DNA of 20,000 bases from an uncultured virus (IMG/VR IMGVR_UViG_3300034284_002793) (Duplodnaviria > Heunggongvirae > Uroviricota > Caudoviricetes). Where the stretch lies: the IMG/VR virus record IMGVR_UViG_3300034284_002793, positions 112,628-132,627 of that record; one strand, given 5' to 3'. The notes under the pieces were generated by a model. The model did not search any database. It saw only the letters and a list, made by a program, of their open reading frames with translations, and was not told the DNA's origin. Positions 7,045 through 19,439 of this stretch are shown here, in pieces. The position numbers were made by a program, and so were the translations under genes. Each line of letters opens with the position of its first letter. Within the stretch, counting starts at the first letter, position 1.

Positions 7045-7131
7045 ATGACACACATCATTATGACATACATTGCAGAGGCGCTTGCCGTGGTGCTTATCCT
7101 CCTGCTTGGCGTTGCGATTCTCTCGATCTAA
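7045..7131 (+). CDS. Small single-TM peptide (start 7045 or 7060)
   Basis: Hydrophobic LAVVLILLLGVAILSI. The stop TAA is the first triplet of element copy 1. Confidence 0.5.
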   Translation: MTHIIMTYIAEALAVVLILLLGVAILSI

Positions 7132-7203
7132 GTTGTTCTAAATCAACGACTTACAACGGGCCACCCTGCGCGCGCGCGTAAGTCCTTGATAATGAGGCAC
7201 TTA
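7129..7203. repeat. Double-palindrome element, copy 1
   Basis: taagttgttctaaatcaacgactta + 25-nt GC core + taagtccttgataatgaggcactta. Confidence 0.9.
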
Positions 7204-7257
7204 CGAATGTCAAGTAAAAAAGATAAAAAAAATTTCACACAATCGCAAAAAAATCCC

Positions 7258-7285
7258 TTGCTTTTTCGGTGGCCTGTGATACATT
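7258..7285 (+). promoter_or_regulatory. sigma70-like module promoter
   Basis: AATCGCAAAAAAATCCC-TTGCTT-16-TACATT. Equivalent promoters have -35 at 8193, 9767, 10536, 11900 and 13286. Confidence 0.75.
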
Positions 7286-7291
7286 GTATGT

Positions 7292-7639
7292 ATGAAAGAT
7301 AAAGAAAACACCACGTTCAACGTCAACGGAACCCTTTGCACGCTCGTCGTCTCGGAAGATCGGGAGGATGATTGCACGAAGCTTTGGCATGACCTCGTCA
7401 GCGTTGACACTGGCAAGGTCGTCGCAACCCTCGACTGGTCGCCCTACTCTTGCCCCTCTAATGAGGAAGTGCAGCAGATCATCGACCTCGGCCTGCCTAA
7501 TGGCTTGCGTTGGGCTAACTCTCACCCTTCTTCTCGCTTCAACTTCGATAGCCTCATGCTGGCGAAATACCTCTCTGGCTACGAGCATCCCGATGGCGGC
7601 AAGATCGAACTGGTCTTCCGCGTTCGCTTGGCCGCATAA
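7292..7639 (+). CDS. Hypothetical protein, 115 aa
   Basis: ATG 6 nt after the -10 box; codon usage matches the region. Confidence 0.8.
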   Translation: MKDKENTTFNVNGTLCTLVVSEDREDDCTKLWHDLVSVDTGKVVATLDWSPYSCPSNEEVQQIIDLGLPNGLRWANSHPSSRFNFDSLMLAKYLSGYEHPDGGKIELVFRVRLAA

Positions 7640-7682
7640 AAAAACTCTTGCGCTTCCACTCAACATCCCATACTCTAACAAT

Positions 7683-7892
7683 ATGAACAGCATCCACGAC
7701 GACTACAACACGCAACCGCAATCCGACGAATACGCGACCGAGCACGAGGAAGTGCGCGGCACGTTCGCCGCCGAGCCTGCCGTTGAGCAGGAGCCGCAAC
7801 CCTATGATGGGTTTGAGGGGCAGTGGGCTGGGGATGGGTCGGGCTTCGACGACCTCGCAGACTGGGGCGAGCAGGAGGGCTGGGACACGTAA
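7683..7892 (+). CDS. Very acidic hypothetical protein, 69 aa (start moved from tracked 7368)
   Basis: TTGCGC(7648)-17-TACTCT-6-ATG. N-terminus IHDDYNTQPQSDE is shared with the 13320 gene. Confidence 0.75.
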   Translation: MNSIHDDYNTQPQSDEYATEHEEVRGTFAAEPAVEQEPQPYDGFEGQWAGDGSGFDDLADWGEQEGWDT

Positions 7893-8012
7893 GAGTGTCA
7901 TAAACTTTCTCCGAACGTTTCGATGCGTGTCTCCATGACGCGGGAATAAACGATGAGGAGACGAAGCGCCCGTTTAAACGGGCGTTTCAATTTGCTAAAA
8001 TTCAATGTTGCG

Positions 8013-8087
8013 TAAACCCTTGATATTCAACAACTTACGCTGGCGCGCGGGGCGCGCGGCCGTAAGTCCTTGATAATTAACGACTTA
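8013..8087. repeat. Double-palindrome element, copy 2 (GC core inverted)
   Basis: taaacccttgatattcaacaactta + cgctggcgcgcggggcgcgcggccg + taagtccttgataattaacgactta. Confidence 0.9.
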
Positions 8088-8226
8088 CGTAACGTCATCA
8101 AGAGTGTCATAAAGAATGTCATAGCGCAAAATTCAAACGCTCGTTTGCCAAAACGTCAACAAAAATAGTTTCGCTAATCGCAAAAAAATATCTCGCTTTT
8201 CGCGCGTCCTGTGCTATTCTGTATAC

Positions 8227-8409
8227 ATGAGAAACAACAACAGAAGCTGGCGCGACGAAGAACGCGAAGCAACCCTCGACTACCCGCTAGGTGTGGATCG
8301 TGAAGATCCCGCCTACCAGCAAAGCCCAGACGCTTACGAGCGTGAAATCGAGCGCCTTAATCGGCACGAAGGCTGGGAGCGTAATCGCGGTGGTTACTAC
8401 CGCCGATGA
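8227..8409 (+). CDS. Hypothetical protein, 60 aa
   Basis: TGTGC-TATTCT-6-ATG. Confidence 0.7.
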   Translation: MRNNNRSWRDEEREATLDYPLGVDREDPAYQQSPDAYEREIERLNRHEGWERNRGGYYRR

Positions 8410-8452
8410 AAAATCGCTTGACTTTCAGCCCCATTTCACCGATACTTTCAAC

Positions 8453-8617
8453 ATGACAGAAAACACCACAACTGGCTGGCCCGAAGTCTGGAACTTCGAC
8501 GAACCCAAAGACGACAACCTCACGCCCGAACAAGCGTTCGACATCCTTTTCGGCTACGCCGAGGAGCGTCATCGCAACGACCCGTGCGCTCGTCCCGCCC
8601 CTAAACCCAAACACTAA
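8453..8617 (+). CDS. Hypothetical protein, 54 aa (start moved from tracked 8291)
   Basis: TTGACT(8418)-17-GATACT-6-ATG. Confidence 0.7.
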   Translation: MTENTTTGWPEVWNFDEPKDDNLTPEQAFDILFGYAEERHRNDPCARPAPKPKH

Positions 8618-8621
8618 CACT

Positions 8622-8831
8622 ATGACAAACACAGACGGCATCATCAAGTCGCTTGAAACTCTCATCAAGCATGAGAAAGCAATTCAGCGTCAAGAAAAAG
8701 AAATTGAAAAATTAAAAGACATCATTGATGGCTCTTTGCAGACGATGCAGGGCCTTCTTGTGTTGAGCGCTGTTCTCTCAAAAGAGATTGAAAGCTTGCA
8801 CAATAATAAGCCTTCTTTTGGACTAAACTAA
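8622..8831 (+). CDS. Hypothetical coiled-coil protein, 69 aa
   Basis: Tightly packed ORF with a heptad-like pattern. Confidence 0.65.
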   Translation: MTNTDGIIKSLETLIKHEKAIQRQEKEIEKLKDIIDGSLQTMQGLLVLSAVLSKEIESLHNNKPSFGLN

Positions 8832-8832
8832 C

Positions 8833-8988
8833 ATGAGCAAAATCATTATGACAATCGACACGCGACCGCTTGCGCGTGTCATAGAGCGCAGCGTCCGCAA
8901 GGCATCTTGCCGCCCATCCTTCGCCATGCGTGTCAAGAAAAAATTCGCGCGCAAGGCAAAGTTTTTTCGCGGTTGGTCTGATCAGTAA
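8833..8988 (+). CDS. Small basic protein, 51 aa (not in ORF track)
   Basis: MSKIIMTIDTRPLARVIERSVRKASCRPSFAMRVKKKFARKAKFFRGWSDQ. Starts right after the previous stop; its TAA is the first triplet of element copy 3. Confidence 0.6.
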   Translation: MSKIIMTIDTRPLARVIERSVRKASCRPSFAMRVKKKFARKAKFFRGWSDQ

Positions 8989-9060
8989 AGCTTTGAATAT
9001 CAACGACTTGCGGCGGCGCGCCCCGCCGCGCGGCATAACCCATTGCAAATCAACGACTTG
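8986..9060. repeat. Double-palindrome element, copy 3
   Basis: taaagctttgaatatcaacgacttg + cggcggcgcgccccgccgcgcggca + taacccattgcaaatcaacgacttg. Confidence 0.92.
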
Positions 9061-9072
9061 CAATATATAGTA

Positions 9073-9089
9073 TTCAGGTAGCGTGCCAA
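9073..9089 (-). promoter_or_regulatory. sigma54-like -24/-12 motif facing element 3
   Basis: Minus strand reads TTGGCACGCTACCTGAA. Confidence 0.55.
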
Positions 9090-9164
9090 TATTGGCGAAT
9101 CTATAAAAATAAAAAAATAAAAAAACCTATTGACGAAAACATCAAACCGAGTTAGCATAAATGT

Positions 9165-9629
9165 ATGAAAAATAAAATTATAACAATCATAGTCACTGCA
9201 TTGGTAACCGCAGCAGTTACTTTCGTTACTCTATCACTTACAGATAGCGAACCGCTGACCGACTGGGTAAAAATGGCGAAGTTAAGAATTAAAGGATGCT
9301 CTGATCCCGAGGCGCACCTGAGCAACGCCAAGCGGATAAAGGGTTGGCTTACCGCAGTTGGAGAGCATGAGCCTGTTAGTGTGAGAATCAGAGAAGGTGT
9401 AGGCTTGCCGCCAGACCAGAGTTTGGCTCCTAAAGGGGTTAAACTCACTCCAACAGCTACAGAAATGTTCATTTTAGTTCGTTCTTCTGATTTTGAGAAC
9501 AATATCCGTGAGATATACGAATTTGATCTCATGAAAATTATGGTGGATAAGGATGCAAGAAAACAATTAAGAGAACTTATTACCAAAACTAAAGCACAGA
9601 GCAATGAGTTTGGTTTCGGTAGTAACTAA
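9165..9629 (+). CDS. Membrane-anchored or secreted hypothetical protein, 154 aa
   Basis: N-terminal basic then hydrophobic segment. TTGACG(9130)-17-TAGCAT-6-ATG. Stop lies inside element 4. Confidence 0.8.
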   Translation: MKNKIITIIVTALVTAAVTFVTLSLTDSEPLTDWVKMAKLRIKGCSDPEAHLSNAKRIKGWLTAVGEHEPVSVRIREGVGLPPDQSLAPKGVKLTPTATEMFILVRSSDFENNIREIYEFDLMKIMVDKDARKQLRELITKTKAQSNEFGFGSN

Positions 9630-9697
9630 CTGAAATTCAACAACTTGCAGAGCCAGATCGGGCCGCGCGGCGTAACTCCTTGATATTCAAAGACTTA
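9623..9697. repeat. Double-palindrome element, copy 4
   Basis: taactaactgaaattcaacaacttg + 25-nt core + taactccttgatattcaaagactta. Confidence 0.88.
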
Positions 9698-9709
9698 CGC
9701 AAAACGCTA

Positions 9710-9726
9710 CGCAATAGCCATGCCAA
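9710..9726 (-). promoter_or_regulatory. sigma54-like -24/-12 motif facing element 4
   Basis: Minus strand reads TTGGCATGGCTATTGCG, with canonical GG-N10-GC. Confidence 0.6.
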
Positions 9727-9800
9727 GTTGCAGAAAAAAAATTTCACACAATCGCAAAAAAATCCCTTGCATTTTTGCGCGTCCGCGCTATATTGAAATC

Positions 9801-10316
9801 ATGAAAGAGAGAAAATCACTAAACGAAAAGCCTCTGACTTGCCTGTTCGTCGGCGTTACCCTCGCTTTGGTATCAGCAGGAGTTGCCATTTATGGGTTGC
9901 GGTTTGGGTTTGCGTCTATTGCCTTTTTGCTTGTTGCTGCTGCAATCTTAAATATCGCAGCGTGGTTTTTTGCCACCCCTGTCGTCTCTTTCGTTGGCGA
10001 TTTTGTAGGAAAATTTTTTACTGGAAGTCAAAACTTTAGCAAGCCCCAGCCTGCTTACAGCCTGCCAGATGGTCTTGCCGCTACCGGACAAAACGCTTGC
10101 GCTATCCTTGCCTACAATGAACTTGCAAAAAATCATCCCGAAGAAATCTTGCCTCATCTTCGCGTGATGAGAATATGGATTGAAAAAATGAATGACGTTG
10201 ACGCTGCGGTTATGGCTTACAATCTCGCCTTGAAAAAAATTCGCGGACAAAAAAATCGCAACGAGTTTACAAAAATGGCAAAAAATAATTTCAGCAAATT
10301 CATCAGCTTTGAATGA
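9801..10316 (+). CDS. Membrane protein with 2 predicted TM helices and a helical, possibly TPR-like C-terminus (start moved from tracked 9720)
   Basis: TTGCAT(9767)-16-TATATT-6-ATG; two hydrophobic stretches. Confidence 0.75.
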   Translation: MKERKSLNEKPLTCLFVGVTLALVSAGVAIYGLRFGFASIAFLLVAAAILNIAAWFFATPVVSFVGDFVGKFFTGSQNFSKPQPAYSLPDGLAATGQNACAILAYNELAKNHPEEILPHLRVMRIWIEKMNDVDAAVMAYNLALKKIRGQKNRNEFTKMAKNNFSKFISFE

Positions 10317-10383
10317 GTGTCATAGCAATGTCATAAACGCTCGGTCAAACGGGCGTTTTACTTTGCGCGAAACCAATTCTATA

Positions 10384-10458
10384 TAAACCCTTGAAAATCA
10401 ACGACTTACGGCGGCGCGCCCCGCCGCGCGGCGTAACCCATTGCAAATCAACAACTTA
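10384..10458. repeat. Double-palindrome element, copy 5
   Basis: taaacccttgaaaatcaacgactta + cggcggcgcgccccgccgcgcggcg + taacccattgcaaatcaacaactta. Confidence 0.92.
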
Positions 10459-10470
10459 CAACATACATCA

Positions 10471-10487
10471 TTCAGATAGCGTGCCAA
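10471..10487 (-). promoter_or_regulatory. sigma54-like motif facing element 5
   Basis: Minus strand reads TTGGCACGCTATCTGAA. Confidence 0.55.
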
Positions 10488-10569
10488 CTTTGCAGAGGGG
10501 CAAAAAATAAAAAAAATAAAAAACGAAAAAATCCCTTGCGTTTTTGCAGTCCTGTGCTATTCTTTAAGC

Positions 10570-10722
10570 ATGGAAAAGAAAATGACTCAATATGCGGACA
10601 AGCTCAACGCCTTCCGCGCTGGCGAAATCACCGAGGACGAATGGAAAGCGTTCTGTTTTGAGGCTCTCTCCGAGATTCTCGAAGACACGAAAGATGTCCT
10701 CATCAGGCTGAAAAATGCTTGA
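10570..10722 (+). CDS. Hypothetical protein, 50 aa (not in ORF track)
   Basis: TTGCGT(10536)-16-TATTCT-6-ATG; MEKKMTQYADKLNAFRAGEITEDEWKAFC... Confidence 0.7.
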   Translation: MEKKMTQYADKLNAFRAGEITEDEWKAFCFEALSEILEDTKDVLIRLKNA

Positions 10723-10753
10723 CCCAATCGCAACAATCAAACATACTACGACC

Positions 10754-10930
10754 ATGAAACAAACACCACAAAAAGCCCAACTCTGGGCAGTCGGAAACAA
10801 AGTCTATCGCGTCATCCGCAACGAAGGCGACAAGACTCACGTTCATCATCACGGGCAAATGGCCCTGTTCTATACGCGCCATCTGAAAATGGCGACACCT
10901 TCACAAGTTGCAGAATACTTGGGAAAATAG
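10754..10930 (+). CDS. Hypothetical protein, 58 aa
   Basis: TTGACC(10719)-17-CATACT-6-ATG. Confidence 0.7.
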   Translation: MKQTPQKAQLWAVGNKVYRVIRNEGDKTHVHHHGQMALFYTRHLKMATPSQVAEYLGK

Positions 10931-10966
10931 TTTGACAATCACCACAAAACCTAACAGAATAACAAC

Positions 10967-11182
10967 ATGACAAAAAAACAATTCACCGCAATCGCTAACA
11001 TCTTGGGAAAACGCTTGGCCGAAAAAGTCAAAGCACCCATCGGAGAATACGAAGTTGTCGAAGTCCTCGCGTTGGACTTGGCGAAATACTTCTCGACAGA
11101 AAACCCTCGTTTCGACGAAGATCGCTTTCTGGAAGCTGTTTTTACTCACACCCCTAACATCCCTGTGGGATCATATAAATAA
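10967..11182 (+). CDS. Hypothetical phage protein, 71 aa
   Basis: TTGACA(10932)-17-CAGAAT-6-ATG. MTKKQF..IA...NPRFD..RFL.A pattern recalls a common small phage protein. Confidence 0.8.
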   Translation: MTKKQFTAIANILGKRLAEKVKAPIGEYEVVEVLALDLAKYFSTENPRFDEDRFLEAVFTHTPNIPVGSYK

Positions 11183-11186
11183 TCAC

Positions 11187-11366
11187 ATGAAAAAATACAT
11201 CACATTCGACCGCATTGCCTACGCAATGTCCCTCTCCACCTTCATCTTCATCGCCGTGACGCTTTGCGCTGCTTGCGTTGAATTGCAAAACAGAACCAGC
11301 AAGAACCAAAAGCAAATGCAGGAAGAAGTCCGCGCAATGTTTGCCCACATCGAGGCACCTCTATGA
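11187..11366 (+). CDS. Small single-TM protein, 59 aa
   Basis: ATG just after the previous stop; hydrophobic segment; ATGA overlap with the next gene. Confidence 0.65.
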   Translation: MKKYITFDRIAYAMSLSTFIFIAVTLCAACVELQNRTSKNQKQMQEEVRAMFAHIEAPL

Positions 11367-11563
11367 TTACCCCCAATATCCAAAAAGCTCTTGAGTCAAA
11401 CGGAGTTCGTTTCTTTGCAAAAGACTTTCTCATGGAAGGTATGCGGAAAGACTGCGTTGACGCCGTGCATGATGCAAAACTCGTTTACGAATTGCTAAAA
11501 GAACGCATGGAAAAAATGCTTGCAATCGAACCCGAAGACGAATACATTAAAGCCAATGAGTAA
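11363..11563 (+). CDS. Hypothetical protein, 66 aa
   Basis: ATGA-coupled to the upstream ORF. Confidence 0.7.
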   Translation: MITPNIQKALESNGVRFFAKDFLMEGMRKDCVDAVHDAKLVYELLKERMEKMLAIEPEDEYIKANE

Positions 11564-11744
11564 AGACCAAGTCAAAGCCGTGTGCGATTACTCGCATGAT
11601 GTCATAATGAAAATCAAAGCCGTGTTCGGATTCAAAAAGAAAAGTCCTTCGCTTCTTTGTCATAGTCTCGCGCACCTCAACACCGCGACATGGCTTGAGC
11701 GCGCGGTCTGCAACGGCACAATCATGGACTACAAGCCGCGATAA
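11556..11744 (+). CDS. Hypothetical protein, 62 aa
   Basis: TTGCAA(11520)-17-TACATT-7-ATG. Stop lies 2 nt before element 6. Confidence 0.6.
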   Translation: MSKDQVKAVCDYSHDVIMKIKAVFGFKKKSPSLLCHSLAHLNTATWLERAVCNGTIMDYKPR

Positions 11745-11746
11745 CG

Positions 11747-11821
11747 TAAAGCGCTAATAATCAAGCACTTACGGCGGCGCGCCCCGCCGCGCAGCGTAAG
11801 TCGTTGAAAATCAATCACTTA
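11747..11821. repeat. Double-palindrome element, copy 6
   Basis: taaagcgctaataatcaagcactta + cggcggcgcgccccgccgcgcagcg + taagtcgttgaaaatcaatcactta. Confidence 0.92.
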
Positions 11822-11833
11822 GGCAAAAGCACT

Positions 11834-11850
11834 TTCATACAGTGTGCCAA
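11834..11850 (-). promoter_or_regulatory. sigma54-like motif facing element 6
   Basis: Minus strand reads TTGGCACACTGTATGAA. Confidence 0.5.
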
Positions 11851-11933
11851 GTCCGCTGTCAAGTAGAAAAAAAATATTTTTTTAATCGTAAAAAATTCCT
11901 TGCGTTTTTGGCATATTGTGGTATTCTTTAATT

Positions 11934-12173
11934 ATGAAAATCACCAAGCCCGACCTCTACGAAGCCCTCATCCAAGCGCGTGTCGCCTTATCGAAAGACA
12001 TCCGCGAAACTTTGCGCGGTCGCCACCTCTCCTACGTTCAAGACCTCTCGCGGAAATCCATCCGCGAAAAAATCGCGGCCTATCGGTTGCTCTCCAACCT
12101 CTCCACGATCAACGCGGAAAGCTACTCGGACAACCGCTCTCTGCGTCACGTTAAAAAAGCTCTTGCCAAGTAA
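11934..12173 (+). CDS. Basic hypothetical protein, 79 aa
   Basis: TTGCGT(11900)-16-TATTCT-6-ATG. Confidence 0.7.
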   Translation: MKITKPDLYEALIQARVALSKDIRETLRGRHLSYVQDLSRKSIREKIAAYRLLSNLSTINAESYSDNRSLRHVKKALAK

Positions 12174-12198
12174 CGCAATCTCTGACAAAATCACCACC

Positions 12199-12882
12199 AT
12201 GAAACTACTAAGCACCAACAATACCAAAATCAAAAAAGGCGAAAAGCTCGGCTGGCGCACTTACGGCCTTTCACTTTCACCCGCTGGCAAAAGTGGAAAA
12301 CAATTCTGTCCGCATCGCTCGGCTGGCTGTGAGTTTGCTTGTCTCGACACTTCGGGCATGGGCATCTTCTCAAACGTCCAAGACGCACGCCTTGCAAAGT
12401 CGCGTTTCTTCATCGACAACCGCAACGAGTTTCTCGCTCAGTTGCATAAAGAATTGCACAATGCCGAAAAGTGGAGCGCAAAAAATAATACGCCTGTGGC
12501 CGTGCGTCCGAACGTGCTTTCTGATCTGCCTTTCCATAAGCTGATCGACATGGCGCGCTTTCCGTCAATTCAGTTTTACGATTACACGCCGAACCTTCAA
12601 CGCATGATGCAGTTTCTAAACGGCGAGTTGCCTAAAAATTATCACCTGACCTTCTCGCGCAAAGAGGACAATCAGCATCGTGTCCACGCTGTTGTTGCCG
12701 CTGGCGGTAACGTGGCCGCTGTCTTTAGTGAGTTGCCCGAAACCTACCTCGGAAAGCCTGTCATAAACGGCGACGAAAGCGACTTGCGTTTTCTCGACGC
12801 GCAGGGCGTGATCGTTGGACTCAAAGCAAAAGGCAAAGCTCTCAAAGATCAATCTGGCTTTGTGGTGCAAGTTGGCGTATAA
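12199..12882 (+). CDS. GP88-family phage protein (Cys-cluster, possibly Fe-S)
   Basis: CPxxSxGCxxxCL, RPNVLSD, FYDYT, NYHLTFS, GGNVAAVF and GDESDLRFLD motifs recognised by eye. Promoter TTGCCA(12163)-17-CAAAAT. Confidence 0.75.
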   Translation: MKLLSTNNTKIKKGEKLGWRTYGLSLSPAGKSGKQFCPHRSAGCEFACLDTSGMGIFSNVQDARLAKSRFFIDNRNEFLAQLHKELHNAEKWSAKNNTPVAVRPNVLSDLPFHKLIDMARFPSIQFYDYTPNLQRMMQFLNGELPKNYHLTFSRKEDNQHRVHAVVAAGGNVAAVFSELPETYLGKPVINGDESDLRFLDAQGVIVGLKAKGKALKDQSGFVVQVGV

Positions 12883-12953
12883 TGAAAACCTATGGAAATC
12901 ATAATCCTTCTTGCTGGCATTATCGGTGGCGCATTACTAATAAATAAAAAATT

Positions 12954-13112
12954 ATGACACTAAACCTAATCGCACGAAAAAACTTGTTTCGCTTGTCTGA
13001 ATACTTTTTCAGCCTTGCGGTATGGTGGGAACGCGCTGGCGTTATGACACTCCAAAAACTTTTCTTTATGGGGTGGCAAAAATGCCTTGACACACGAGAC
13101 AAATTACGGTGA
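12954..13112 (+). CDS. Hypothetical protein, 52 aa (not in ORF track)
   Basis: MTLNLIARKNLFRLSEYFF...; stop lies 2 nt before element 7. Confidence 0.5.
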   Translation: MTLNLIARKNLFRLSEYFFSLAVWWERAGVMTLQKLFFMGWQKCLDTRDKLR

Positions 13113-13114
13113 CA

Positions 13115-13189
13115 TAACCTACTGAAAATCAACGACTTACGGCGGCGCGCCCCGCCGCGCGGCGTAAGTGCTTGAAAATCAACGACTTA
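13115..13189. repeat. Double-palindrome element, copy 7
   Basis: taacctactgaaaatcaacgactta + cggcggcgcgccccgccgcgcggcg + taagtgcttgaaaatcaacgactta. Confidence 0.92.
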
Positions 13190-13201
13190 TACAAAATGCC
13201 A

Positions 13202-13218
13202 TTCAAGAAGCATGCCAA
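13202..13218 (-). promoter_or_regulatory. sigma54-like motif facing element 7
   Basis: Minus strand reads TTGGCATGCTTCTTGAA. Confidence 0.55.
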
Positions 13219-13319
13219 CTCACAGAAAAAACGCTCGTTTGAATTTTCGTCAACAAAAATACTTTTCAGAATCGCAAAAAATCCATTGCATCGTGCCGTG
13301 CCTGTGCTACTCTTTACCT

Positions 13320-13451
13320 ATGCAAGCGAACACCATCACCGACGACTTCAACACGCAAACCCAAAGCGACGAGTTTGCCTCCGAATTTGAGGCTTGGCTC
13401 GACGCGCAGGAACTGAAATACTGGCAGGAAATCGACGCTCGCGGAAATTAA
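13320..13451 (+). CDS. Acidic peptide, 43 aa, paralogous N-terminus to the 7683 gene
   Basis: TTGCAT(13286)-16-TACTCT-6-ATG; ITDDFNTQTQSDEFA. Confidence 0.7.
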   Translation: MQANTITDDFNTQTQSDEFASEFEAWLDAQELKYWQEIDARGN

Positions 13452-13455
13452 TTTT

Positions 13456-13692
13456 ATGACAAACACAAACCCACTACACGGCTACCTCTCCGACTGCTGC
13501 GGAGCCGAACACGACATCAACGCCGAACACCACATTCTCAACGAGAGTGTGCGTGGAGGATGCTCCGCTTGCGGACACTACTCGGAGTTTTCCCCTGTGG
13601 AGGAAAACGTCCGGCACAATCAACGCATCAGCCTCTCCGCTCTCAATGCGTTCGTGCCAGACGAGTTGAACTCTTACGAGCAGCCGTGGTAA
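13456..13692 (+). CDS. Small zinc-ribbon-like protein
   Basis: SDCCGA...GGCSACGH cysteine pairs. Confidence 0.7.
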   Translation: MTNTNPLHGYLSDCCGAEHDINAEHHILNESVRGGCSACGHYSEFSPVEENVRHNQRISLSALNAFVPDELNSYEQPW

Positions 13693-13735
13693 ATTGTTTG
13701 ACACTCTCAACCCTAACAACTAACATCATCAATCT

Positions 13736-14230
13736 ATGAACAAAGCAAAAGTCCTAATCAGTCCTTACGGAAACGGCATCGCTGTCGGCCTTGAGGGAAA
13801 CAAAGATCAAATCGAACGCGAATATAATCGCTTTTTTAATTGGGGCGCAGCTGGTGCTGGCGCGAATGTCGAACGTGGCAACGGCGACTCTGAAATCCAG
13901 CACGGAGAACTTGGCGACTCTTACCTCCACTATGTCGGAGAAGGGTTTGCCTACTTCCTGTCATCGGAAAAAGATATGCTTCGCGCTATGACATATGAAC
14001 ACTTGACCAAGTGGCAAGATAGCGAAACGTCAGCGCAATATAAAACAAAGCCACGCAATCACAAGAGGGATTCGGGCAAGGTATTCCGCGAACACGCGCA
14101 GATCGCAGCGCAAGACGAATATAATGAAATCGAACGCGAGAACTTCATGCTCTACCAGAAAGCTCCCGCATACATCTTCCGCGAGCTTGATGGCGGCGCG
14201 CCGTCTTGGAGAAGTGAAACGGAGGACTAA
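13736..14230 (+). CDS. Hypothetical protein, 164 aa
   Basis: TTGACA(13698)-17-TAACAT upstream; codon usage matches the region. Confidence 0.8.
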   Translation: MNKAKVLISPYGNGIAVGLEGNKDQIEREYNRFFNWGAAGAGANVERGNGDSEIQHGELGDSYLHYVGEGFAYFLSSEKDMLRAMTYEHLTKWQDSETSAQYKTKPRNHKRDSGKVFREHAQIAAQDEYNEIERENFMLYQKAPAYIFRELDGGAPSWRSETED

Positions 14231-14234
14231 TATA

Positions 14235-14504
14235 ATGAAAAAAATACTTGTCACCGTTAAGCAAATTATAGAAGTCCCAGACTCTTTCAAAATTACAAGT
14301 TTTACAGAGCCAGGAGATGTAGCGTTTGATTATATAAAAATAGGAAAAAAATTAACTGCGCCAGATATAACATGGTTTGACTATGACAAAGTTTCTGGCG
14401 TTGGAAGCGAGAGCGACGAACTCGTTGAGCGTCTCGCCCCTGCAATAGTTGACTACTCCTTGCAAGAATTTTCTTTCGATGAAGATCCTAACGTAAGTTG
14501 TTGA
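14235..14504 (+). CDS. Hypothetical protein, 89 aa, AT-rich codons
   Basis: GGAGG upstream; ATG just after the previous stop; its TGA lies inside element 8. Confidence 0.7.
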   Translation: MKKILVTVKQIIEVPDSFKITSFTEPGDVAFDYIKIGKKLTAPDITWFDYDKVSGVGSESDELVERLAPAIVDYSLQEFSFDEDPNVSC

Positions 14505-14568
14505 AAATCAACGACTTGCGGCCCCGCGCCCCGCGCCCATGTGTAAGTGCTTGATACTGAACAACTTA
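14494..14568. repeat. Double-palindrome element, copy 8
   Basis: taagttgttgaaaatcaacgacttg + 25-nt core + taagtgcttgatactgaacaactta. Confidence 0.9.
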
Positions 14569-14635
14569 TACATAATACCATAACAAGCCCATCTGATAAT
14601 AATAATGCATTTTTATTCATATGATAGTGTTTTAT

Positions 14636-14702
14636 CTATTTAGCTATTTGACTAATAACTATTTCCTATTTATCTATTTCACTTTTAGCTATTTCGCTAT
14701 TT
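14636..14702 (+). repeat. CTATTT direct-repeat array
   Basis: Exact CTATTT at 14636, 14644, 14659, 14666, 14674, 14689 and 14697, with degenerate copies at 14652 and 14682. Confidence 0.8.
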
Positions 14703-14810
14703 GTCGAAGTATTTAAGAAATTTCGACAGGTTTTTTTGTTATGTCGAAAGGATCGACATGAGAGAAAAACATTTGACTGATGTGTAAATTGTGATAGAGT
14801 TGGAGGTAGA

Positions 14811-14884
14811 GGAGTTTTAGCTCAATTGGTTAGAGCGCTGCCCTGTCACGGCAGAGGTTGCGGGTTCGAGCCCCGTAAACTCCG
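14811..14884 (+). tRNA. tRNA-Asp(GTC)
   Basis: Acceptor ggagttt/aaactcc; anticodon arm ctgcc-ctGTCac-ggcag; TTCGA T-loop; no encoded CCA. Promoter TTGACT(14773)-16-TAGAGT. Confidence 0.95.
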
Positions 14885-14892
14885 TTTTTTTT

Positions 14893-14967
14893 GGGAAGGT
14901 AGCTCAAAGGTAGAGCAGCGCCCTTTTAAGGCGTTGGTTCTGGGTTCGATCCCCAGTCTTCCCACCA
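14893..14967 (+). tRNA. tRNA-Lys(TTT)
   Basis: Acceptor gggaagg/tcttccc; gcgcc-ctTTTaa-ggcgt; encoded CCA. Confidence 0.95.
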
Positions 14968-15033
14968 AAAAAATTTCAAAAAATAATCAAAATACCCGTT
15001 GACAAAACCATCAAAAAACCCTATTCTTAAAAC

Positions 15034-15297
15034 ATGAAAGCACTACTAAATAAAGTCAAACTCGCAATCGCTGACTCCAAAATCGGTCAGTTCACCAACC
15101 CTGTGTATCGCTTGAAGTATCGGCCTTACACCGAACAAGGAAACAATGAGGTTTATACCTACTTCGTTTCTCGACCCTTCGACTTGTTCGCTAACGGAAT
15201 CGTGGCTTACTGCTTCGGCAAAGGTGTTCGCAGGTTCCGCTACGATGAAATCGTTGAGCGGGAAGTTGTATCGCTCTTTGGAAAATCTGTGGCGTAA
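15034..15297 (+). CDS. Small WYL-like (Sm/SH3-type barrel) domain protein
   Basis: LKY...VSRPF...IVAYCFGKGVRRFRYDEI matches the WYL RxFRxDRI signature. TTGACA(14999)-17-TATTCT-6-ATG. Confidence 0.6.
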   Translation: MKALLNKVKLAIADSKIGQFTNPVYRLKYRPYTEQGNNEVYTYFVSRPFDLFANGIVAYCFGKGVRRFRYDEIVEREVVSLFGKSVA

Positions 15298-15312
15298 AGC
15301 CACGAATAAACA

Positions 15313-16050
15313 ATCTGCCCGACAATCAATATCGGAAATAAAAGAAGCAAAGTTAACCGGATCTTTGCGGTGGTCGCTTAATGCGAAATATAAAACATCC
15401 GCCGAGGCAGATAAACATTTACAAGTAGCCCGAAAAAATATCGGAAACAAAAGCAGGACAGAATAGCGTCTGTCATCATATACAAAACGCACCGAGGCTT
15501 GAAATATGGGAGTCGCCCCGACCCCAAAGATGTAATGCATGACATCTCGGGGCAACTTTAAATATCTACGAGTTCATACCAGAGGGAACTGGTGCCCACG
15601 CGTAGAGAATAAACTCCCAAACTTTTAGTTCTTTTACATCTTGAGGGCTGACTCCTCCCAGAAGGGGGAGAGCGCGCAGCAGAAAACCAGAGGAATTAAC
15701 CTCCAGCCCACAACTCTCCCAAGCTCTGGCGGATACATCTCCGTTCAACTTGTGAGCTAGTCGTCGAAAGACGATTCGATGTCGGTGCCGCCAGAAGGCA
15801 CGGAGTCATAGGCAGGGAGTTCTGGCCTCCCTGTCAACACTTTCTGTCATAAAAAAAAATCGCCGTGGAGTAACGGTCCACTAGTCAGAACCTACTGATG
15901 AATAAGAGTAAGCTGATCGTGACAGCAATAAAGGGGATGGTCACCACCGACCCGCGAGCGGCTCGCGTTAGCTGGTTAGTGCTGCAAAGCATTAGCCCCC
16001 ATTTGATCCGTAAGGAGACGATGATGGGAAGCATGGCAGCCGACACTTTC
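15313..16050 (+). ncRNA. Candidate large structured ncRNA, or cluster of ncRNAs, upstream of tRNA-Cys
   Basis: No convincing ORF; many nested stems, GNRA tetraloops and complementary loops (see findings). Confidence 0.65.
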
Positions 16051-16121
16051 GCACCTTTAGCCAAGTGGTAAGGCAGGAGTCTGCAACACTCTTATCGCTG
16101 GTTCGAATCCAGCAAGGTGCT
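16051..16121 (+). tRNA. tRNA-Cys(GCA)
   Basis: Acceptor gcacctt/aaggtgc; ggagt-ctGCAac-actct; U discriminator; no CCA. Confidence 0.93.
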
Positions 16122-16187
16122 GATTATCAACGAGTTACAGCTACACGCCCCGCCGCGCCGCGTAAATGCTTGAATATCAACGCTTTA
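16113..16187. repeat. Double-palindrome element, copy 9, overlapping the tRNA-Cys 3' end
   Basis: caaggtgctgattatcaacgagtta + 25-nt core + taaatgcttgaatatcaacgcttta. Confidence 0.85.
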
Positions 16188-16240
16188 TAAAGTATAAATA
16201 TCCAGTTGACAAAATTTTCAAATAGGGCTATTCTTACAGC

Positions 16241-16966
16241 ATGATCACCACACAACTACCTCTACCCATGCGTTGCTCTTCTGATGCTCTCGTTCAGCCA
16301 GAGCTTGAACTCAAGCCTACGCGCAATCCTTCCTACTCTCGCGTCGAACGCTTCTTTGATTCCTTGGATCGTTCGCGTGTTGTGTCATACACCGACTACT
16401 GGAATTCCATTGCGCCCAAAGGAACACAAGATGCAATGTTGCGCTGGCTCTTTGCTTTTATGTCAGTCCATACGAGTTGGAAGTCCAACGTCAACGGCTA
16501 CAACGCAATCAAAACAATGGATTGGTGGCACGATCAACAAGTCCTCCTTAACAAGCTCAAGCATAGTGGCGTTGGCTTGCACAACAATCGCACGAAATTT
16601 GTCTGGCAGTTCCAGAAAAACTTTTGGGGTGATGTCAAAAAGTATTCTCACGCTCCTACGGATTGGCGCGGTCATCGTGACGAGTTGGTTAGCGAAGTGC
16701 TTGGTCTTGGCAAAGCTAAAGTCTCTTTCTCGTTGGAGATGATTCATCCCGACAAGTGCGAAGTTGTCTGCATGGATACTCATATGTTCCAAGCCTACTC
16801 GCTCGACCAAACCAAAGACGAAAAACATTACGATAACATCGAAGCCCATTGGATTTCAATGTGCCGTGCGTATGACGTTCCCTGCTACATTGCGCGTTGC
16901 CTTTACTGGGATGCGATTCAAGACAAGCAGGATTCGCGCTACTGGTCGTATGTTTTTGAAGAATAA
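16241..16966 (+). CDS. Helix-hairpin-helix DNA glycosylase-like protein (Ogg/EndoIII superfamily)
   Basis: LVSEVLGLGKAKVSF HhH-like motif followed by VVCMDTHM with the catalytic-type Asp. Promoter TTGACA(16206)-17-TATTCT-6-ATG. Confidence 0.7.
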   Translation: MITTQLPLPMRCSSDALVQPELELKPTRNPSYSRVERFFDSLDRSRVVSYTDYWNSIAPKGTQDAMLRWLFAFMSVHTSWKSNVNGYNAIKTMDWWHDQQVLLNKLKHSGVGLHNNRTKFVWQFQKNFWGDVKKYSHAPTDWRGHRDELVSEVLGLGKAKVSFSLEMIHPDKCEVVCMDTHMFQAYSLDQTKDEKHYDNIEAHWISMCRAYDVPCYIARCLYWDAIQDKQDSRYWSYVFEE

Positions 16967-17004
16967 TCCTTGCAATCCATTTCAAAATCCAATACATTAA
17001 GAAC

Positions 17005-17229
17005 ATGAACAAAACCACTACCATCATCACCCGCCGTTCACCCTTCACCCAAAAAGTTAACAGGATGGAGATTCCTCTCTCCCATTCGGAGTTTGAGAAG
17101 AGGACAATTCTTTGGCAGTCTGGGATGCTCATTCAAGATGCGTTCCCCATGCTGTCCGCTGATGAGCGCGAGTTCATCAAAACTGGTATCACTCCCGAAG
17201 AGTGGGAACAGATGTTTGGAGAAGACTAA
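17005..17229 (+). CDS. Hypothetical phage protein, 74 aa
   Basis: TTGCAA(16970)-17-TACATT-6-ATG; LIQDAFPxLSADEREFIKTG motif familiar from small phage proteins. Confidence 0.8.
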   Translation: MNKTTTIITRRSPFTQKVNRMEIPLSHSEFEKRTILWQSGMLIQDAFPMLSADEREFIKTGITPEEWEQMFGED

Positions 17230-17250
17230 TATAGAAAGGAGGAAAATATA

Positions 17251-17421
17251 ATGAAACTAATCGAAGGTGCTATTTATAACTACAAAGGGGAAGCTGTTCG
17301 TTTCCGTAAACAGATTGGCGTTGTTGCTTTCTTGTCGCGTCGTAAGCGAGGTTCGTTTGTTGGACGAACTGATTTGCTCAAGAAGGCAAATAAAAAGCAG
17401 GTCGATAAATTCCTCAAATAA
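17251..17421 (+). CDS. Basic hypothetical protein, 56 aa (not in ORF track)
   Basis: AAAGGAGG upstream; MKLIEGAIYNYKGEAVRF...; stop lies 3 nt before element 10. Confidence 0.7.
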   Translation: MKLIEGAIYNYKGEAVRFRKQIGVVAFLSRRKRGSFVGRTDLLKKANKKQVDKFLK

Positions 17422-17424
17422 GCG

Positions 17425-17499
17425 TAAAGCTCTCGTAATCATGGGGTTACGAGGGCGCGCCCCGCCGCGCTGCGTAAGTCGTTGGAAATCAACCACTTG
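17425..17499. repeat. Double-palindrome element, copy 10
   Basis: taaagctctcgtaatcatggggtta + cgagggcgcgccccgccgcgctgcg + taagtcgttggaaatcaaccacttg. Confidence 0.88.
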
Positions 17500-17511
17500 C
17501 GCATTTGTCCT

Positions 17512-17528
17512 TTCAGGAACCGTGCCAA
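17512..17528 (-). promoter_or_regulatory. sigma54-like motif facing element 10
   Basis: Minus strand reads TTGGCACGGTTCCTGAA. Confidence 0.55.
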
Positions 17529-17605
17529 TTCCCAGAAAAATATTTTCAATCAAATTGCAAAAAAAGGTTTGCTCGCTCATACAAAAACACTTATTCTTAT
17601 GAAGT

Positions 17606-18385
17606 ATGAGAAACCTAAACCTAACACTGCACTGCGGCGGTCACGCCGTGGAATCCACCCAAGTTCAGCAAACTCCCACTCCCGCACCCACGGATTCGTG
17701 GATGCCCATCCCGCACTTCGCGCTCATCGAGCGTCTGCGCGAGATCGTCGGTAGTGCTGGCTTGACCATCACGCAAGAGGCGCACGCCCTTGCTCGCAAC
17801 GGCCTTCGCTACTTCGGATTGTTCCAAGTGGCGGGAATCCCCAACTTCTCACAGGAGTCCAACATCGGGACTGTGATCGGCTTGCGCAACTCGCACGACA
17901 AGTCGTTTCCCGCTGGCATCAACGCTGGTTCCGCGCCTTTCGTGTGCGACAACCTCGCGTTTCACAACGAGATCAAAATCGCTCGTCGTCACACCAAGTT
18001 CATCATGCGCGACCTTCCTTCGCTCCTTTCGGGCGCATTCGGAAAGTTGCTCAACACTTGGGGCAACAACGCCAAGCGTATCGAGGCTTACCAGTCTTGC
18101 GCGCTCAAGGACGTTCAAGCGCACGACCTCATCGCCAAGGCTTACCGCTGTGGCGCAGTGAGCAAGACCGCTCTGGCGGACGTTCTCGACCAGTGGCACA
18201 ACCCCGAACACGCCGAGTGGTCGGAGCAGAAGAACCTCTGGGGTCTTCACAACTCCTTCACCAACGTCATGCGCGGAAACGTGCTCGCGTTGCCCAAGCG
18301 TAGCGATGCGCTCCACGGACTTCTCGACCCTATCGCAGGCGTGGCGCTGGCGAGGGCAGAAGACGCCGAGGCCATCACGGTCTAA
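17606..18385 (+). CDS. DUF932-family phage/plasmid protein
   Basis: PIPH...FGL...GLRNSHDKS...G..FVCDNL...RHT motifs typical of DUF932. Confidence 0.8.
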   Translation: MRNLNLTLHCGGHAVESTQVQQTPTPAPTDSWMPIPHFALIERLREIVGSAGLTITQEAHALARNGLRYFGLFQVAGIPNFSQESNIGTVIGLRNSHDKSFPAGINAGSAPFVCDNLAFHNEIKIARRHTKFIMRDLPSLLSGAFGKLLNTWGNNAKRIEAYQSCALKDVQAHDLIAKAYRCGAVSKTALADVLDQWHNPEHAEWSEQKNLWGLHNSFTNVMRGNVLALPKRSDALHGLLDPIAGVALARAEDAEAITV

Positions 18386-18400
18386 ATTCTGAGACGCACA

Positions 18401-18438
18401 AAAGGGCTTGGCAGGGCAACCTGTCAAGTCTTTTTTTT
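18401..18438 (+). terminator. Intrinsic terminator
   Basis: ggcttggcagg-gcaa-cctgtcaagtc hairpin followed by T8. Confidence 0.85.
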
Positions 18439-18457
18439 GCAAAAATTCATTGTTGTG

Positions 18458-18532
18458 TAAGTCATTGAATATCAAGCACTTGCGCCGCCGCGCCCAGCTG
18501 CCCAGCGTAAGTCTTTGATTGTCAAGGGTTTA
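18458..18532. repeat. Double-palindrome element, copy 11
   Basis: taagtcattgaatatcaagcacttg + 25-nt core + taagtctttgattgtcaagggttta. Confidence 0.9.
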
Positions 18533-18596
18533 CATTTTAATGCAAAAAATATCTTGACCGCACACGCAAAAGACTTTATTGTCATTATATCACCAC

Positions 18597-18923
18597 ATGA
18601 AACTATCAGAAATTCAAGCCATTGCAAACCTCACAGCAAAATTCCTCGGACTCCCAATCAAACCCAAGGCCGAAATTACTACCAATAAACGAGGCCGCGC
18701 CTACACCACGCAGGGCCGCTTCAATATTCCAGAGTGGGCCTTCAAGCACGGAGAAAAGTTTGTCATATACTATGTTGTGCATGAAGTCTGCCACTTTTAC
18801 GGAGGAACATTAGATCACGGCAAACTCTTTTGTCAAGTCGAAGACCGCGCATTAAAATTTTGGGGGCTTTACATTCAACGCAAAAAAGTTTATCCTAATC
18901 CACAATCAATCTACAAACTATGA
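18597..18923 (+). CDS. Small zincin metallopeptidase-like protein (SprT/YgjP-like)
   Basis: YYVVHEVCH...DHGKLF (HExxH plus distal His). Confidence 0.75.
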   Translation: MKLSEIQAIANLTAKFLGLPIKPKAEITTNKRGRAYTTQGRFNIPEWAFKHGEKFVIYYVVHEVCHFYGGTLDHGKLFCQVEDRALKFWGLYIQRKKVYPNPQSIYKL

Positions 18924-19168
18924 GCAAAAATACCTGCCCTGCTGATTACGATGGCGAAATGCTTGTTATCGGTGGCTATGTAAAATACGATGGAAAGACT
19001 TGGGAAGTCCTTGACTACGAAGATTCCGAACAGCCATACTTTGATGATAACTACACGGAACATAGTATTCTTTTATTGGCTTGCCGCTCGCAAGAGGAAG
19101 ACAATATTTGGATACCAGATTATGAGGTAGAGCAAACTGAATATCAGCAATTGTGTTTTGAACTATGA
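18920..19168 (+). CDS. Acidic hypothetical protein, 82 aa
   Basis: ATGA-coupled to the upstream gene. Confidence 0.7.
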   Translation: MSKNTCPADYDGEMLVIGGYVKYDGKTWEVLDYEDSEQPYFDDNYTEHSILLLACRSQEEDNIWIPDYEVEQTEYQQLCFEL

Positions 19169-19247
19169 AAAATATCGTTCTATTTGTCGCTCTACCTATC
19201 ACTATTTGTGTCTGGTCGTTCACTATTTATGGAGTAATTAAATTTTT

Positions 19248-19320
19248 GGGGTGGTAGCTCAATGGTTAGAGCGTGCGGCTCATAATCGCTTGGTTGTCGG
19301 TTCGAATCCGACCCGCCCCA
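19248..19320 (+). tRNA. tRNA with CAT anticodon, probably Ile2 (lysidine type) rather than Met
   Basis: Acceptor ggggtgg/ccgcccc; loop ctCATaa. The CTCATAATCGCTTGGT stretch resembles bacterial tRNA-Ile2; the paired 1-72 position argues against an initiator. Confidence 0.88.
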
Positions 19321-19395
19321 CATCTATTTGAAAATCAAGCACTTACAGATGAGTGCCCCGCCGCGCCGCGTAAGTCGTTGATATTCAATGGCTTA
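19321..19395. repeat. Double-palindrome element, copy 12, abutting the tRNA 3' end
   Basis: catctatttgaaaatcaagcactta + 25-nt core + taagtcgttgatattcaatggctta. Confidence 0.85.
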
Positions 19396-19439
19396 CAAAA
19401 ACACTTGACACCAATCGCAACCTGTGATACATTTAGAGG

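Follow-up and report, generated by a model that had tools for sequence, protein, structure and literature searches.

What is the function of the sigma-54-like motifs that lie on the minus strand of a phage early region, each behind a repeated element and facing into it? The window (the whole 20-kb stretch of DNA analysed here) is the GC-richer early-gene island of an uncultured lake phage of ~170 kb, whose early genes are leaderless cassettes set apart by a repeated boundary element of ~80 bp. The element is a double palindrome present in 12 copies in the window, and its downstream end can bear an optional tail of ~40 bp, the core of which is the sigma-54-like motif. A PHROG match was obtained for only 56 of the 148 ORFs tried, no island protein matched a known DNA-binding family, and an HU/IHF gene was not found in the phage. 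The copies are as follows.

7126..7205, unstranded, boundary element copy 1, short form, no motif
8010..8089, unstranded, copy 2, short form, GC core inverted
8983..9062, unstranded, copy 3, long form (palindrome 1, GC-rich core, palindrome 2)
9620..9699, unstranded, copy 4, long form
10381..10460, unstranded, copy 5, long form
11744..11823, unstranded, copy 6, long form
13112..13191, unstranded, copy 7, long form
14491..14570, unstranded, copy 8, short form
16110..16189, unstranded, copy 9, short form, overlapping the tRNA-Cys 3' end and directly adjoined by the next promoter
17422..17501, unstranded, copy 10, long form
18455..18534, unstranded, copy 11, short form, with a terminator-like T-run after palindrome 2
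19318..19397, unstranded, copy 12, short form, overlapping the tRNA-Met 3' end and directly adjoined by the next promoter

A motif locked to the boundary elements

Scanning with the pattern TTGGCAYRNNNNHTGM (TTGGCAYR-N4-HTGM) confirmed the original prediction of a minus-strand motif behind copies 3, 4, 5, 6, 7 and 10. There were six matches in the window, 6/6 on the minus strand, against 0.17 expected, and six matches were reached in 0/200 shuffles. The sites are given below as 17-mers, each consisting of the 16-nt pattern match plus one extra 3' base and starting at the first coordinate of its line. The predicted +1 positions follow the motif-centre rule, by which transcription starts 19 bp downstream of the motif centre (Bonocora et al., PMC4591121), and the bit scores come from the matrix described in the following section.

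9073..9089, minus strand, sigma-54-like 17-mer TTGGCACGCTACCTGAA, GG-N10-GA, behind copy 3; match 9074-9089; 13.7 bits; predicted +1 at 9062
9710..9726, minus strand, sigma-54-like 17-mer TTGGCATGGCTATTGCG, GG-N10-GC, behind copy 4; match 9711-9726; 16.5 bits; predicted +1 at 9699
10471..10487, minus strand, sigma-54-like 17-mer TTGGCACGCTATCTGAA, behind copy 5; match 10472-10487; 14.2 bits; predicted +1 at 10460
11834..11850, minus strand, sigma-54-like 17-mer TTGGCACACTGTATGAA, behind copy 6; match 11835-11850; 11.3 bits; predicted +1 at 11823
13202..13218, minus strand, sigma-54-like 17-mer TTGGCATGCTTCTTGAA, behind copy 7; match 13203-13218; 15.7 bits; predicted +1 at 13191
17512..17528, minus strand, sigma-54-like 17-mer TTGGCACGGTTCCTGAA, behind copy 10; match 17513-17528; 13.8 bits; predicted +1 at 17501

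Across the whole 132.6-kb record the strict pattern recurred only twice more (record positions 24544 and 72037), both 17-mers falling within ORFs. The motif is locked to the element, as had been proposed: in 31/31 distinct long-form copies from the window and its relatives TGCCAA occupies bases +22 to +27 past the aligned element end, with zero insertions or deletions in the register. At 10 positions the 17-mer does not vary at all, while divergence is seen in the 13-nt linker and in the right flank.

A promoter scan also bore out the proposed back-to-back arrangement with plus-strand sigma-70-type promoters, listed here; the first, of leaderless design, stands back-to-back with the 9073 site.

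9130..9167, plus strand, sigma-70-type promoter TTGACG-17-TAGCAT, then 6 nt, ATG at 9165
9767..9803, plus strand, sigma-70-type promoter TTGCAT-16-TATATT, then 6 nt, ATG at 9801
10536..10572, plus strand, sigma-70-type promoter TTGCGT-16-TATTCT, then 6 nt, ATG at 10570
11900..11936, plus strand, sigma-70-type promoter TTGCGT-16-TATTCT, then 6 nt, ATG at 11934
13286..13322, plus strand, sigma-70-type promoter TTGCAT-16-TACTCT, then 6 nt, ATG at 13320
17569..17608, plus strand, sigma-70-type promoter TTGCTC-17-TATTCT, then 8 nt, ATG at 17606

What lies ahead of each sigma-54-like site is the element and then the 3' end of the plus-strand gene before it; there is no gene downstream, and no conserved minus-strand ORF follows. 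The claim that a site always faces its element held in a wider family, among 133 distinct element flanks retrieved without any demand on the tail (site threshold 10 bits), where 28/133 flanks carried a site pointing in and 0/133 one pointing away; shuffles averaged 0.45 and never exceeded 2. Whole modules have been gained or lost at the elements between relatives. The module downstream of copy 1 follows the short form in the window and in relative G004 and the long form instead in three others (G002, G003 and G005), and since the two forms alternate at the same module between phages, the tail is dispensable.

Distant relatives carry textbook versions of the motif (TTGGCACGCTTTCTGCT, GTGGCACGCTTTTTGCT) behind linkers of other lengths, which indicates that the motif itself is what is conserved. 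In relative G007, whose large terminase subunit is 44% identical, 20 sites of at least 10.6 bits are packed into the 2.9 kb at the end of the island, and the adjoining 5.1 kb has none. These occur in several arrangements, always with the exact GG-N10-G spacing: some sites are face-to-face 4 bp apart (1142-1179), others are back-to-back, and six alternate within 145 bp (1811-1955).

Fit to sigma-54 recognition

The sigma-54 consensus is YTGGCACG-N4-TTGCW. We built the scoring matrix by counting bases in the 42 intergenic-sense sigma-54 ChIP sites that Table 1 of PMC4591121 gives for E. coli. With this matrix the six sites reached 11.3-16.5 bits, scores that genuine sites also have, and the 31 family sites reached 10.6-18.9 bits (median 14.5). 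For comparison, sites simulated from the E. coli matrix had a 5th percentile of 9.6 bits and a median of 16.4, the tails of short forms (n=30) scored at most 8.5 bits and the 99.9th percentile of the window was 6.4 bits. The fit of the window and family sites to the extended consensus is at the level of validated sites.

The strongly informative sigma-54 columns are invariant among the 31 distinct copies except at -12, and every E. coli column of at least 1.1 bits (TGGCA, T-14, G-13) holds the same base in all of them. The -24 block varies only at column 7 (C/T) and column 8 (G/A), bases tolerated by sigma-54, the N4 spacer is variable, and the GG-N10-G spacing is exact in 6/6 window sites and 31/31 family sites. 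Matrix and copies together bear out the sigma-54-like reading, in that this is a selected element with a conservation profile matching -24/-12 recognition.

The exception at -12 was correctly noted from the start, five of the six window sites having GA and only the 9710 site GC. The second base is C in 1/6 window sites and 11/31 family sites and A in the remainder (20/31 of the family), while A occurs there in 1/42 sites of the E. coli set (PMC4591121). GA nevertheless has precedent, being present in 3/50 sigma-54-bound intergenic sites in the E. coli table, including hydN, which is marked C in the EcoCyc column of that table, a mark we take to mean confirmed (PMC4591121).

Taken by itself the matrix lacks specificity: two matches that score as high occur in the window at 566 and 4828, within AT-rich genes. 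Of 35 matches of at least 11 bits in the window's own record, eight were judged intergenic and six of these eight are the six sites, one of which overlaps a minus-strand ORF taken as spurious. The estimated background of matches of at least 13.7 bits in the record is ~3 per 100,000 positions.

Candidate antisense promoters and competing explanations

We tentatively interpret the six motifs as sites for the host sigma-54 RNA polymerase holoenzyme that act as activator-gated antisense promoters, an interpretation we rate as quite possible though somewhat short of an even chance. The host holoenzyme would bind the -24/-12 sites in the tails of the boundary elements; as every site faces upstream, transcription would begin at palindrome 2, on its outer edge, and continue in antisense across the element to reach the 3' end of the cassette before it. 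Judged from sequence, such binding and firing could affect the early cassettes through transcriptional interference or antisense control. Of the datasets listed as carrying the sequence none is recorded as RNA, and two doubtful ones consist of contigs that give neither strand nor ends.

The searches for sigma-54 machinery that had been suggested returned nothing to drive such promoters from the phage itself. The sigma-54 DNA-binding domain was not found in phage records G000 to G005, and a search with the sigma-54 activator domain (PF00158) gave no match in G000 and, in G001 to G003, only a RuvB-like AAA+ protein. For the proposal that the palindromes are enhancer sites, the phage thus yielded no gene of an enhancer-binding protein, and inspection by eye upstream of the long forms showed no activator site common to all of them. 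With no phage sigma-54 or recognisable enhancer-binding protein, the holoenzyme would wait as a silent closed complex until fired by an activator, which the host may supply. One Verrucomicrobia genome bin with short island-like contigs has rpoN, its link to the phage being weak. Leaderless genes characterise phyla that are not known to possess sigma-54, which counts against a host sigma-54 reading; the sigma-54 DNA-binding domain gave no match in the control genomes Corynebacterium, Deinococcus and Thermus.

The further suggestion that the transcript is a conserved structured antisense RNA was not upheld. In the palindromes 74.0% of cells pair, no better than in shuffles, of which 499/500 match this level (500/500 for an alternative central helix); no compensatory changes were found in the palindromes. 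The predicted antisense RNAs fold unremarkably (z-scores +0.20 to -2.42, with differing topologies) and have no Rfam match at E <=1. A T-run after palindrome 2 is present in only some copies; promoters follow the elements, and the hairpin is without covariation support.

The sites may instead bind the host holoenzyme without firing, either as decoys that take up sigma-54 and thereby blunt sigma-54-dependent responses of the host, or as architectural anchors where cassettes join, which we consider unlikely. Promoter-bound sigma-54 holoenzyme is silent, and of the 135 sites reported for E. coli most were transcriptionally inactive (PMC4591121). The docking or decoy alternative raised at the outset gains some weight from G007, whose face-to-face, back-to-back and alternating sites cannot all be productive promoters, and neither a phage activator nor a downstream gene was found. 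A decoy, however, does not need the fixed orientation observed here; all 31 close-family copies keep one and the same register to the palindrome, and only 3 to 6 sites per close-family genome were counted in the stretches fetched. A roadblock by bound sigma-54 polymerase was tested in E. coli and not found in that report (PMC4591121). More speculative still is a wider version, that this lake phage family has wired host sigma-54 polymerase into its early region, the inward-facing sites either trapping holoenzyme and so disarming sigma-54-dependent stress or defence responses, or firing G-rich transcripts into the GC core that would seed RNA-DNA hybrids used in replication or in the recombination of cassettes. 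If true, either would mean that a lytic phage exploits sigma-54, for which no example was found in the literature searched.

It is also doubtful that some other DNA-binding protein, of phage or host, recognises the motif and partners a palindrome binder, the resemblance of the motif to sigma-54 sites being coincidence. Most of the phage proteins have no known family, the palindromes behave like protein sites and not hairpins, and the constant distance from palindrome 2 is suggestive of two bound factors touching each other; the T before TGGCA is invariant although not required in the E. coli set, and -12 breaks the rule in 20/31 copies. Set against this, the bipartite pattern, exact GG-N10-G, free spacer and tolerated Y/R changes all match sigma-54, the form is kept with other linkers and in every G007 arrangement, unlike a dimeric site of fixed dyad spacing, and matches as high as 13.7 bits are rare in the record.

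Antisense sigma-70-type promoters, with TTGGCA as -35 and a -10-like hexamer 16 nt on at the edge of palindrome 2, are highly improbable: a minus-strand consensus scan did find TTGGCA-16-TATATT (9089 to 9062) and TTGGCA-16-TATGTT (10487 to 10460), and some relatives have TATTCT at the -10 place, but an acceptable -10 exists in only 2/6 window copies, the would-be A-11 fits 18/31 copies and T-7 26/31, a sigma-70 promoter has no use for the invariant spacer TG or for the invariant Y-G that follows TTGGCA, and the true island -35 hexamers vary freely (TTGACA, TTGCGT, TTGCAT). We give equally little credence to the tail being a functionless passenger spread with the element by recombination between copies, since, although the tail may be present or absent at one and the same junction depending on the phage, the copies look homogenised (TGCG and TGAA versions swap along with their neighbours) and different element copies are joined in metagenome contigs, the 17-mer has stayed invariant at 10 positions next to a diverged linker and flank, and in distant relatives the motif recurs with unrelated linkers, on both flanks and in arrays.

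Comparison with known systems

If the sites are host sigma-54 promoters, their closest counterparts are the bacterial sigma-54 (RpoN) -24/-12 promoters such as E. coli hydN, pspA and glnA, with which they share the GG-N10-GC/GA spacing; their scores lie within the range of ChIP-validated E. coli sites, and hydN has GA at -12 as most phage sites do. Unlike those promoters, the phage sites point away from genes and into a repeat, A at -12 is their majority form, and for them we found neither a gene downstream nor an activator, whether as a gene or as a shared binding site. Many non-canonical E. coli sigma-54 sites are likewise antisense or distant from genes and silent under the conditions tested in that study (Bonocora et al., 2015, PMC4591121), whereas the phage sites are intergenic, element-locked, uniformly oriented and kept across a phage family.

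The promoter/stem-loop (PeSL) cassettes of T4-like phages are also composite repeats between small early ORFs in a plastic region (PMC2839356; PMC4122927) and, like the elements described here, are reported to mark points of gene gain and loss between relatives (PMC4122927). The present element differs from them in its double palindrome, GC-rich core, optional sigma-54-like tail and lack of conserved-hairpin support. The oop RNA of phage lambda is an antisense RNA against the 3' end of an early gene, made from a sigma-70 promoter and ended by its own terminator; its promoter, like the phage sites, lies just past the end of an early unit and points back into it, the phage sites being of another promoter type (sigma-54-like). 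RIB/RIP repeats, a BIME class, are IHF-binding repeats at operon ends in enterobacteria, and the IHF consensus is WATCAANNNNTTR, which the arms of the phage element match: it occurs 24 times in the window, where 1.75 occurrences are expected, and 22 of the 24 lie in the elements. Both RIB/RIP and the phage element are repeated palindromes at the 3' ends of transcription units, with the layout reversed in the phage, where AT-rich arms holding IHF sites predicted from the consensus surround a GC-rich core.

The sigma-54-like motif and its place in the element

The motif TTGGCAYR-N4-HTGM occurs six times in the window against 0.17 expected, always on the minus strand and at the places named in the original prediction, after copies 3-7 and 10 of the 12 element copies present. 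The element spans ~80 bp and consists of two palindromes around a GC-rich core. A profile search for the element over the window and related loci recovered 61 distinct copies, 31 of the long form, in which an optional ~40-bp tail carries the motif, and 30 of the short form, with the next promoter often placed right against the element. The proposed locking of motif to element held in 31/31 distinct long-form copies, with TGCCAA lying exactly at +22 to +27 and zero indels; these copies mix orthologues with paralogues and so are not 31 independent events.

Long forms among all elements in the fetched DNA of the window and of five related phages (G001-G005)
Window: 6 of 12
G001: 6 of 13
G002: 4 of 11
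G003: 5 of 11
G004: 3 of 7
G005: 4 of 9

The module after element 1 follows a short form in the window and G004 and a long form in G002, G003 and G005, and its alignment starts ~41 nt later in the latter three. Judged by such sequence comparison, the tail is optional and part of the element.

Likeness to RpoN promoters was scored with a count matrix, on a uniform background, built from the 42 sites that Table 1 of Bonocora et al. (PMC4591121) gives as intergenic-sense. The six window sites reached 11.3-16.5 bits, in line with the predicted resemblance, on a matrix that is that of E. coli. On the same matrix the 31 family sites scored 10.6-18.9 bits (median 14.5), simulated matrix-derived sites had a 5th percentile of 9.6 and a median of 16.4 bits, and short-form tails reached 8.5 bits at most, the specificity of the score being limited by two equally high matches inside AT-rich genes of the window. 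All E. coli columns of at least 1.1 bits have the same base, invariant, in the phage copies, save position -12, which is A in 20 and C in 11 of the 31 family copies. The -24 block varies only as C/T and G/A, as in the tabulated E. coli sites, and the N4 spacer is free; the -12/-11 versions are TGCG and TGAA, with the textbook TGCT in wider relatives. GA at -12 is found in 3 of the 50 bound intergenic E. coli sites of the table, including hydN, which is marked C in its EcoCyc column, taken here to mean confirmed (PMC4591121).

Outside the window, TTGGCACCTAAATTGCT lies in sense orientation on the minus strand of the same record (L001:8213-8229), followed directly by TGTAATATA and then by a strong ribosome-binding site and a 52-aa gene beside the endolysin. 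The site recurs in 8 variants, among which N5 varies. It was considered as independent support for sigma-54 and counted as ambiguous, since it can also be read as a plain sigma-70 promoter (TTGGCA-17-TACAGT; TATAGT in G002).

Orientation, palindromes and possible binding proteins

Wider retrieval by the inner half-sites alone, with any core or tail, gave 81 stretches on 46 contigs with 133 distinct oriented flanks. The motif points into the element, as had been proposed: 28/133 flanks have an inward site of at least 10 bits and 0/133 an outward one (shuffled-tail control: mean 0.45, maximum 2). The window's offset is shared by 23 of the 28, and the fixed register is limited to the close family, since the remaining five sit elsewhere. 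In the distant relative G007, whose large terminase subunit is 44% identical, the island end (L167:1-2900) holds 20 sites of at least 10.6 bits in 2.9 kb, 10 per strand, and the adjoining 5.1 kb of AT-rich DNA holds none. These sites lie on both sides of each palindrome element, pointing inward, and have outward partners; there is one face-to-face pair (L167 1142-1179) and a group of six alternating sites (L167 1811-1955). What stays constant throughout is the bipartite motif itself, 17 nt long, its two parts exactly spaced and the spacer between them free to vary.

The proposal that the element may be transcribed as a structured antisense RNA found no support as far as a conserved structure is concerned. 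In the two hairpins 74% of cells pair over the 61 copies, yet 499/500 shuffles did as well, and pairing in an alternative central helix was matched by 500/500 shuffles. The six predicted antisense RNAs fold into dissimilar topologies, with z-scores between +0.20 and -2.42, and Rfam returned only tRNAs at gathering score and zero matches on the element at E<=1. The most conserved parts of the element are the two inner half-sites adjoining the core, which match the IHF consensus. Because pairing is at shuffle level, conservation lies in the half-sites and the folds differ, we interpret the element as DNA bound by proteins rather than as a structure conserved in RNA. The putative antisense RNA may nonetheless open with a 5'-terminal hairpin, the six outer pairs of palindrome 2 being largely preserved. 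Two elements start within tRNAs, one in the 3' end of tRNA-Cys (window 16110-16121) and one in that of tRNA-Met (window 19318-19321); in both, tRNA sequence takes the place of palindrome 1's left arm.

On balance we favour binding of the sites by the host sigma-54 holoenzyme. Sigma-54 promoters are silent until fired by an ATP-driven activator. Activator-gated antisense promoters are our leading candidate for what the sites do, advanced tentatively; that the sites beside the element all face inward argues for a role of direction. Among the six phage records there was no sigma-54 domain, and searches of the phage found no true enhancer-binding protein (a RuvB-like protein was the sole match), no HU/IHF gene and no gene downstream of the sigma-54-like sites. 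The arrangements in G007 suggest instead docking or decoy sites at which host holoenzyme would not fire, which we consider unlikely. A roadblock role for the bound polymerase is ranked low, since Bonocora et al. (PMC4591121) tested it in E. coli and did not find it. It is similarly improbable that the motif serves another DNA-binding protein: the constant 17-nt unit, with its exact spacing and free spacer, fits sigma-54 better than it would a protein binding as a dimer at a dyad of fixed spacing. A sigma-70 antisense promoter would have a usable -10 in only 2/6 copies and leaves the invariant TG unexplained, making it very improbable, and we give equally little credence to the tail as a functionless passenger.

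The GC-richer island, its phage and the host

The window is the final 20 kb of a 132,627-bp linear virus record with an estimated completeness of 88%. The record is that of a tailed phage (large terminase subunit, 1680-aa tape measure and, by a weak match, portal) that also codes for DNA polymerase, primase, a DnaB-like helicase, ribonucleotide reductase and two sigma-70-family proteins, the majority of its proteins having no known family. The stretch is present in lake-water metagenomes of several years. The searches found no cultured relative. Large terminase subunit and DNA polymerase share <30% identity with any isolate; megablast of 13.5 kb against a phage collection gave zero matches, and sensitive blastn with a 6.8 kb query found tRNAs and one small gene only.

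GC content is 30-38% over the genome, but 42-58% in the last ~14 kb (window from ~6500 on). This block is no assembly chimera, since in two complete relatives with terminal repeats it forms a ~17-kb island with AT-rich DNA on either side. It contains small plus-strand genes and four tRNAs. In window 6500-20000 the plus strand has 15 sigma-70-type promoters (TTGNNN, 16-18 nt, TANNNT) with an ATG 5-7 nt beyond them, and the minus strand has none. As read from the sequence, this layout is a leaderless design in which nearly every small gene has its own promoter. Island DNA is 80-96% identical between phages with large terminase subunits only 55-56% identical (window 6500-20000; L036-L041), and the island looks like a module exchanged between phages.

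Other features of the record were noted. Window 15300-16050, a stretch of ~750 bp separating a small gene from tRNA-Cys, lacks both a convincing ORF on the plus strand and any match in Rfam. Where 2.3 copies of TGTCATA would be expected, window 7044-18767 has 21, some as tandem pairs after gene ends (8105/8117, 10318/10329) and others as ATGACA gene starts on the opposite strand. TGTAAT or GTGTAA lies 8-20 nt upstream of ATG in many AT-rich genes (record positions 1-119000, L001-L007) and may be a late promoter for one of the two phage sigma-like proteins. A sugar-modifying cluster (L003-L004, record ~46000-67000) comprises GDP-mannose 4,6-dehydratase, epimerases, a C-methyltransferase, several glycosyltransferases and a family-9 heptosyltransferase-like gene.

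Clues to the host conflict. The GDP-mannose dehydratase has 120 relatives among the matches listed. A 1.9-kb contig in a Verrucomicrobia genome bin carries the element, and the bin has rpoN; we place little weight on it and do not take it as the host, because its GC content of ~57-60% differs from the 44-49% of its short island-like contigs, and the terminase query was unmatched in the bin. No enrichment upstream of AT-rich genes was seen for TAnnTTTG, the -7 motif of Bacteroidota (3/37 genes). A Shine-Dalgarno-like motif precedes only 14/118 genes outside the island, and many genes are leaderless. No dataset listed as containing the stretch is classed as RNA. Two wastewater sequencing runs labelled RNA-Seq (X23 and X24; shares 0.16 and 0.14) were considered as transcript evidence and rated "probably DNA"; they consist of contigs from a relative, which cover ~15.6-20 kb with 90-95% similarity to the window in most pieces and give neither strand nor end information.

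Significance and cassette exchange

Phages are not known to use sigma-54 promoters systematically in regulatory DNA of their own, and full-text literature searches found no report of it among the papers listed. If host sigma-54 polymerase reads the sites, the phage would have tied the control of its early genes, or its takeover of the host, to one of the host's signalling pathways, and the dense arrays in relatives would constitute a natural sigma-54 sponge or insulator, usable as a genetic part.

Between elements, modules are present or absent as wholes among relatives, and the repeats mark points of early-cassette exchange between phages. Metagenome contigs link different element copies (e.g. 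9024 to 13162), and contigs of a DNA run break in or just after four elements (window 7232-7254, 9741-9763, 10407-10421 and 13138-13152); these joins and breaks may reflect genuine variation in the cassettes or assemblies interrupted at repeats. In the optional tail, the gain and loss of modules and the contigs joining different element copies, the arrangement resembles the PeSL cassettes of T4-like phages.
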